A DNA stretch of 18,500 nt. It comes from a virus. Lineage: Duplodnaviria; Heunggongvirae; Uroviricota; Caudoviricetes. Below the pieces are notes generated by a model. The model was not told where the DNA came from. It saw nothing but the letters and a program-made list of their open reading frames with translations, and did no database searches. Shown piece after piece: positions 14,226 through 14,452 of the stretch. The position numbers and the translations under genes are program-made. The number at the start of each line of letters is the position of its first letter. The stretch's first letter is position 1. The DNA lies in the IMG/VR virus record IMGVR_UViG_2534682324_000033, one strand, 5' to 3'.

Positions 14226-14283
14226 TTTCTGGTGACGTTTGGCGGTATCAGTTTTACTCCGTGACTGCTCTGCCGCCCTTTTT
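14226..14283 (+). ncRNA. dicF: DicF-like small RNA (ftsZ-targeting sRNA of Qin-type prophages)
   Basis: TTTCTGGTGACGTTTGGCGGTATCAGTTTTACTCCGTGACTGCTCTGCCGCCC plus T5 matches my recollection of the 53-nt DicF; located just upstream of dicB as in K-12. Confidence 0.6.
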
Positions 14284-14287
14284 AAAG

Positions 14288-14435
14288 TGAATTTTGTGAT
14301 GCGGTGAATGCGGCTGAGCGCACGCGGAACAGTTAAAACCAAAAACAGTGTTATGGGGGGATTCTCTGTATCCGGCGTTAATTGTTAACTGGTTAACGTC
14401 ACCTGGAGGCACCAGGCACCGCATCACAAAATTCA
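14288..14435. repeat. 19-bp perfect inverted repeat pair flanking 110 bp between dicF and dicB
   Basis: TGAATTTTGTGATGCGGTG (14288-14306) is the exact reverse complement of CACCGCATCACAAAATTCA (14417-14435); the downstream arm ends 17 nt before the dicB ATG. Confidence 0.85.
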
Positions 14436-14452
14436 TTGTTGAGGACGCGATA

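Follow-up and report, generated by a model that had tools for sequence, protein, structure and literature searches.

The spacer between dicF and dicB in the prophage studied here contains a perfect inverted repeat, which is a real element that is functional at the RNA level. We are fairly confident that this repeat is best explained as the basal helix of a long-stem variant of the prophage STnc100/PasD RNAs, which is cut by RNase III in read-through transcripts, freeing DicF from the dicB message. A role of RNase III in processing at the dicF-dicB locus is already known from work on K-12 published in 1990, and what is new here is a modest addition to it: the element is assigned to the STnc100 family, a long-stem subtype located inside operons is recognised, and dicF-dicB is found to parallel kilS-kilR. 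Both DicF and DicB serve as models for the control of cell division and metabolism by prophages, in EHEC also of virulence, and termination and processing at this spot set the amount of each product made from one operon.

The dicF-dicB locus

The stretch of DNA that was analysed, referred to as the window, comprises 18,500 nucleotides and is 100% identical to an E. coli O157:H7 prophage. The Qin prophage of K-12 is ~97% identical over 14150-14650, and over 14080-14470 the identity between K-12 and the window amounts to 98%. Positions 14226-14278 of the plus strand encode DicF, a 53-nt sRNA with its own terminator hairpin, which is followed by a U-tract at 14279-14283. The Rfam model for DicF (RF00039) matches at 14227-14278 with 76.7 bits, compared to a gathering score of 48, and is covered completely (model positions 1-52), and the K-12 dicF annotation (b1574, 1649382-1649434) maps to 14226-14278 with zero sequence differences. 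An earlier note on this DNA had described a DicF-like sequence with hairpin and U-tract at 14226-14283, which is borne out; since there is no difference from K-12 DicF, the element is DicF itself, beyond DicF-like. Upstream of dicF an ORF (13666-13884) occupies the position of ydfC, and dicB and ydfD (DUF1482) follow downstream. The SD sequence of dicB, GAGGA, is located at 14441-14445 on the plus strand, the ATG is found at 14453 and the coding sequence runs through the stop codon at 14641, as derived from the ORF list, Pfam and the RefSeq annotation of identical O157:H7 loci. The DicB ORF matches Pfam family PF05358 with E = 1.7e-37.

Elsewhere in the window, a full-length sok antitoxin RNA (RF01794, 7207-7381, minus strand, 116.9 bits) implies a hok/sok-type toxin-antitoxin locus. 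A toxin-antitoxin pair consisting of PaaA2 (PF21217) and ParE (PF05016) is located at 12016-12942 on the plus strand, between the immunity region and the ydf-dicF-dicB genes, and is preceded by a 144-aa ORF that has no Pfam match and appears repressor-like from reading its translation. We take this region to resemble the paaR2-paaA2-parE2 system of O157:H7.

A 21-bp helix spans the spacer

The perfect inverted repeat has arms of 19 nt at 14288-14306 and 14417-14435, separated by 110 nt, exactly as described in the earlier note. It is the longest inverted repeat (loop of at most 300 nt) in the whole window. In 200 dinucleotide-preserving shuffles the longest inverted repeat ranged from 9 to 14 nt and never exceeded 14 nt, ruling out a chance repeat. 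Folding of the region, which had been proposed as a check, confirmed that the arms pair and added the pairs G14287-U14436 and A14286-U14437, resulting in 21 consecutive base pairs between 14286-14306 and 14417-14437 of the plus strand with an MFE z-score of -5.2 relative to shuffled sequences. The perfect downstream arm ends at 14435, i.e. 17 nt before the dicB ATG at 14453, again in agreement with the earlier description. The claim that the repeat ends at the dicB ribosome-binding site (RBS) holds in that the helix adjoins this site, but not to the letter, as even the extended helix stops 3 nt short of the SD sequence.

Absence or lack of conservation of the repeat in K-12 had been named as a finding that could refute it, and alignment with K-12 revealed a conserved stem. 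Two substitutions are located in the arms, C14302 to U and C14420 to U, and each converts a G-C pair into a G-U wobble so that the stem is kept.

The helix closes a conserved, covarying RNA domain

The helix encloses a multi-hairpin region of ~110 nt, and the whole domain of ~150 nt lies between the DicF terminator and the dicB RBS. The consensus fold suggests a three-way junction with hairpins P1 to P4 on the 21-bp basal helix, all on the plus strand. In the RNAalifold consensus P1 (14310-14314 with 14320-14325) is paired in 100% of the alignment cells. P2 (14326-14328 with 14371-14373) surrounds a region that varies in length and sequence between copies, and according to the alignment and RNAalifold two of its three pairs show compensatory changes. 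P3 (14374-14383 with 14391-14400), likewise predicted by RNAalifold, has compensatory changes in four pairs. The sequence GTTAACTGGTTAAC at 14384-14397, which the earlier note had correctly placed between the arms, corresponds to the loop and the 3' strand of P3, and the loop itself, TTGTTAACTGG, is nearly invariant in an alignment of 23 sequences. P4 (14402-14416; CCUGG-AGGCA-CCAGG) lies within the family signature UCACCNGGAGGCACCNGGCACC and was also found by RNAalifold, with a U-A pair replaced by G-C in six sequences.

Covariation was tested on this alignment, which consists of 23 divergent copies of the spacer subtype introduced below, using a hand-written structure. Standard pairs are formed in 95.2% of the cells, as compared to 33-43% after sliding the partners by 1-3 columns. 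Compensatory double changes occur in 14 of the 44 pairs, a number reached by none of 500 shuffles. In the 21-bp basal helix 91.7% of the cells are paired and seven pairs show double changes; examples of compensation are GGGCUUUGC.../...GCAAAGCC in copy L137 and GCGAA/UUCGC in copy L178, where the window has GUGAA/UUCAU. A covariance model of the spacer type scores 184 bits on the plus strand and 33 bits on the minus strand. The frequent G-U pairs together with this difference in score indicate that the plus-strand RNA is the conserved, selected molecule.

The interiors of the copies measure 101-124 nt and their length differences are not multiples of three. A coding explanation, based on a GTG ORF (14348-14641) that is in frame with dicB, is excluded by these non-triplet indels and by the compensatory pair changes. 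ARAGORN detected no tRNA or tmRNA-like element in the region, and no internal promoter or terminator was predicted at the module on the plus strand. The near-invariant loops suggest that the core does more than join the two arms, as processing alone would not account for this degree of conservation.

Two further features of the core were observed. The invariant signature UCACCUGGAGGCACC at 14399-14416 (plus strand) contains an anti-SD-like CACCU and an SD-like GGAGG. Moreover, the 5' seed of DicF, GGUGACGUU (14231-14239), is perfectly complementary to the conserved AACGUCACC (14395-14403) inside the module. At DicF loci this duplex has a better energy than shuffled sequences (z = -2.3 to -4.0), which is mostly not the case beside other sRNAs. 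As the signal is confined to DicF loci and mostly absent with another upstream sRNA, we did not adopt an action of DicF on the module as mechanism; judged from the base complementarity, it could reflect sequestration of DicF in cis, a sponge, or a merely incidental match.

The domain is related to STnc100

An E-value-based Rfam scan matched the STnc100 family (RF02076) to 14290-14430 with 39.4 bits and E = 1.4e-7, which is below the gathering score of 47. The match aligns model positions 21-154, and the closing helix and the terminal hairpins agree. When Rfam was used at the gathering threshold, DicF was the only family reported at the dicF-dicB region, so that the link to STnc100 is visible in the E-value scan alone. 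A canonical STnc100 copy is also present in the window, at 3099-3271 on the minus strand (100.8 bits), and a covariance model built from spacer-type sequences only finds this copy (3110-3260, minus strand) with 52.4 bits and E = 4e-14. One spacer-type member, L015, lies just above the Rfam STnc100 threshold with 47.8 bits. As the match is obtained in both directions and L015 passes the threshold, homology to STnc100 is well supported, although in formal terms the dicF-dicB copy stays below the Rfam cutoff and the terminator of the family is missing from it. The earlier note had found the repeat; it missed that the arms close a conserved domain of the STnc100 family. The spacer is not junk; it is a covarying STnc100 member overlooked by the Rfam threshold.

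A 3' motif scan of one-genome-per-species and viral collections yielded 248 modules, which fall into two subtypes. The canonical STnc100 type (152 unique copies) has a median closing helix of 8 bp and is usually followed by its own terminator, a downstream terminator being present in 72 of the 152 copies. The spacer type (26 unique copies) has a median closing helix of 21.5 bp, with at least 18 bp in 23 of the 26 copies, and is usually followed by a gene start; within 110 nt no terminator was detected for any of the 26. Stems of two turns thus occur precisely in those copies that form part of a longer transcript, suggesting that the extension of the helix serves processing. Based on these sequence comparisons the dicF-dicB domain appears to be a long-stem, intra-operonic variant of the prophage STnc100/PasD family.

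A search of phage genomes gave matches that cover the stem and the interior alone, without DicF or dicB. These copies are located directly upstream of kilR in Rac-type phages, of a Kil gene in Shigella Stx phages, of terB in P7 and of an unannotated gene in a Klebsiella phage. Overall, the genes following spacer-type copies encode DicB, KilR, an Ash/Rha-type regulator, TerB and several small unknown proteins. The module is present in about 4,640 of 5,426 complete E. coli genomes. Searches of the literature did not turn up any report connecting STnc100 or PasD to dicB, kilR or RNase III.

The canonical copy in the window (3099-3271) lacks the 3' terminator hairpin of the Rfam model. It is located between an ORF with a TerB domain and a DUF1737/SASA sialate-esterase ORF (ORFs 1112-2962 and 3440-3901, both on the minus strand), downstream of three tRNA genes (4045-4291, minus strand). 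The neighbourhood in P7 is similar, with tRNAs, the module and terB.

Probable processing by RNase III

According to later papers that cite the original work, the 3' end of DicF comes in two forms, and the 53-nt form results from Rho-independent termination (Balasubramanian et al. 2016, PMC5069750; Ponath et al. 2022, PMC9438474, citing Faubladier 1990). The main 3' end of DicF is therefore produced by its own intrinsic terminator and not by the helix. The same sources report a 3' end made by RNase III that gives rise to a 72-nt DicF in K-12 (Faubladier, Cam & Bouche 1990, as cited in PMC5069750 and PMC9438474). Counting 72 nt from 14226 leads to 14297, the tenth nucleotide of the 19-nt 5' arm and midpoint of the 21-bp helix. 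The catalytic valley of E. coli RNase III holds ~22 bp and both strands are cut, leaving 2-nt 3' overhangs (Altuvia 2018, PMC6212723). With 21 consecutive pairs, or about two turns, the helix fits the length of roughly 20-22 bp required of an RNase III substrate. In vivo, usually at least one G-C pair is found among the two pairs between the cuts (PMC6212723). A cut after 14297 would place G14296-C14427 and U14297-A14426 between the cuts, in keeping with this rule to the extent that the quoted 72-nt length is accurate. The partner cut in the 3' arm, after 14427, follows from the 2-nt overhang rule.

The proposal that RNase III recognises the duplex and thereby defines a 3' end of DicF is supported, and had in fact been published, with the 72-nt end mapping to 14297; it applies to transcripts that read through the terminator, and not to the main 53-nt DicF, which ends at its own terminator. 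We infer that the cut generating the 72-nt end lies in this particular helix, as it fits by position, on the basis of lengths from secondary sources and coordinate arithmetic. In an RNA-seq comparison of delta-rnc and wild-type strains Gordon et al. (2017) list a peak at 1649470 named 'dicF-dicB', which corresponds to 14314 in the window and has 0 reads in the wild type and 26 in delta-rnc; it is flagged as known. The peak supports cleavage by RNase III, but with 26 reads this evidence is thin, and its resolution is limited to ~400 bp by the merging of neighbouring sites. The zero coverage of the core in the wild type argues weakly against its accumulation after excision during exponential growth of K-12.

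Ragunathan et al. (2023, PMC10448788) emphasise another RNase III site, located upstream of DicF, at which a 190-nt precursor obtains its 5' end. By arithmetic, 14278 minus 189, this cut maps to ~14089, which probably places it in the 3' strand of a long imperfect hairpin at 14015-14100 (plus strand; repeat 14023-14035/14081-14093) with a folding energy of -37.4 kcal/mol and z = -3.3. As the upstream cut maps to this hairpin, DicF appears to be flanked by two RNase III-type helices.

Our model starts from features established here, namely sequence, folding, covariation and relatedness to STnc100, and from the RNase III-dependent 72-nt DicF reported for K-12. To these it adds a partner cut and what would become of the three resulting RNAs. 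Most transcripts would stop at the DicF terminator. In read-through transcripts the arms would pair into a two-turn duplex, which RNase III would cut near its middle, after ~14297 and ~14427. The cuts would detach DicF as a 72-nt species from the dicB-ydfD message, leave dicB mRNA with a leader of ~25 nt that starts at 14428, and excise a core of ~130 nt.

A parallel arrangement at kilS-kilR

The KilS sRNA of the K-12 Rac prophage (1418405-1418502, minus strand) was defined by Hfq RIL-seq and verified by northern blotting (Bar et al. 2021, PMC8175672). The Rac module (1418243-1418409, 168 bits) begins where KilS ends and stops 14 nt before the kilR ATG; KilS and module together correspond to copy L247 (444-703, minus strand; K-12 1418243-1418502). 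As in dicF-dicB, an Hfq-associated, terminated sRNA is followed by a long-stem module and a gene for an FtsZ inhibitor. The Rac cassette differs from dicF-dicB in that the sRNA is KilS and the protein is KilR, which has no Pfam match and is unrelated to DicB. The Rac helix, unlike that of dicF-dicB, contains one bulged nucleotide and extends into the U-tract. In addition, a recombinant viral contig (L215) carries DicF and the module followed by kilR. The layout of sRNA, module and toxin is thus common to two unrelated FtsZ inhibitors.

Tentatively, the dicF-dicB and kilS-kilR spacers may represent a previously unannotated long-stem STnc100/PasD subfamily in a conserved three-part cassette, in which a terminated Hfq sRNA is followed by an STnc100-like RNA that RNase III can excise and by the gene for an FtsZ inhibitor, and the excised ~130-nt core would be a third functional product, or would set how much toxin mRNA survives read-through, rather than being a passive spacer. 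We hold this extended reading to be possible, and clearly less probable than the processing model.

In two other copies (L026 and L182) the gene after the module is of the Ash/Rha type, and Rfam reports isrK and C4 70-200 nt downstream. Table S1 of Gordon et al. (2017) contains a delta-rnc-dependent kilR-sieB site at 1418510, unflagged and ~8 nt upstream of the KilS 5' end. We rejected it as evidence for the Rac helix, as it lies outside the module and the list combines sites within 400 bp of each other.

Alternative roles of the helix

The helix might mainly close an autonomous STnc100-like RNA, so that RNase III would release a second trans-acting RNA of ~130 nt besides DicF, a role that is compatible with the processing model. 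Apart from the homology of the core to STnc100, this is suggested by the canonical form, which corresponds to the Hfq-binding sRNA EcOnc27 in EHEC (PMC12711010), by the related prophage sRNA PasD, which has RIL-seq targets, and by loop and junction sequences that are near-invariant across genera, more so than processing alone would require. In contrast to canonical STnc100 and PasD, however, the dicF-dicB copy is devoid of a terminator or U-tail, the K-12 annotation has no sRNA between dicF and dicB, and the coverage of the K-12 core, absent in the wild type and present in delta-rnc, suggests degradation over accumulation. We therefore view release of a third regulator as a plausible minority option.

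Less probable, and in our view rather unlikely, is a translation gate, in which the helix would block the ribosome from dicB until RNase III removes it and thereby switches on the synthesis of DicB, in analogy to the lambda N leader. The helix end is only 3 nt away from the SD sequence, in all long-stem copies the module ends at most ~40 nt from the next start codon, and opening of the -20 to +15 footprint of dicB is predicted to cost 17.1 kcal/mol in the unprocessed and 11.7 kcal/mol in the processed transcript, a gain of 5.4 kcal/mol. The SD sequence and the AUG, however, are both located outside the helix, so that neither is paired in it as would be expected of an operator that sequesters the RBS, and the energy required to open the stretch from SD to AUG hardly changes (8.2 kcal/mol unprocessed, 8.9 kcal/mol after the proposed cut). 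For kilR the predicted effect is even reversed, as opening of its RBS costs 4.0 kcal/mol before and 8.8 kcal/mol after processing. Moreover, the distance between helix and SD varies from ~1 to more than 25 nt among the copies. The suggestion of the earlier note that the stem gates dicB translation is thus not supported, the SD and AUG being outside the helix and the energies being inconsistent between the dicB and kilR leaders, and gating by occlusion of the RBS is unlikely on the grounds of these predicted folds. An effect on the stability of dicB mRNA via the new 5'-monophosphate end is equally possible.

A local hairpin (AUAAUGG/UUAUUAC, 14450-14467, plus strand) pairs the dicB AUG in the predicted unprocessed fold, with probabilities of being unpaired of 0.01-0.10, and loses stability in the processed leader, for which the value is 0.72.

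Finally, we consider it very improbable that the repeat is a DNA-level palindrome bound by a protein or used in recombination, that it arose by chance, or that it acts as an intrinsic terminator or attenuator: the shuffling of modules between flanks, as in L215, might suggest a recombination joint, but pairing is kept by G-U wobbles that would be mismatched on the other strand or in DNA, compensatory changes are present in seven helix pairs, the plus strand clearly outscores the minus strand (184 versus 33 bits), no shuffle reached the length of the repeat, and the 3' arm is followed by UUGUUGAGG instead of a U-tract, with no terminator called there. The true terminator in the vicinity is the hairpin of DicF with its U-tract at 14279-14283.

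Comparison with known systems

Interpreted as the basal helix of a long-stem STnc100/PasD variant that would be cut by RNase III, the element corresponds to the RNase III 3'-processing site of dicBF in K-12 Qin, with which it shares the locus, an identical DicF and a stem that is kept in K-12 via two G-U wobbles. In the O157:H7 stem all 19 pairs are Watson-Crick pairs; otherwise there is no difference between the two.

With STnc100 (RF02076, also EcOnc27) and PasD the domain shares a closing helix around several hairpins, the motifs GGUGAAU and UCACCNGGAGGCACCNGGCACC, and the location in prophages. It differs from STnc100 in that it scores below the gathering threshold, has no terminator of its own and is located inside an operon, directly upstream of a coding gene, and in the length of the closing helix, which is 19-31 bp in the spacer type as compared to ~8 bp in canonical STnc100. 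The module offers a testable handle on the function of STnc100-type RNAs.

The lambda N leader and the T7 R1.1-type sites are stem-loops in polycistronic early phage transcripts at which host RNase III separates functional units. These signals are simple hairpins with internal loops, whereas the dicF-dicB duplex is a long-range helix that closes a multi-hairpin domain of ~110 nt.
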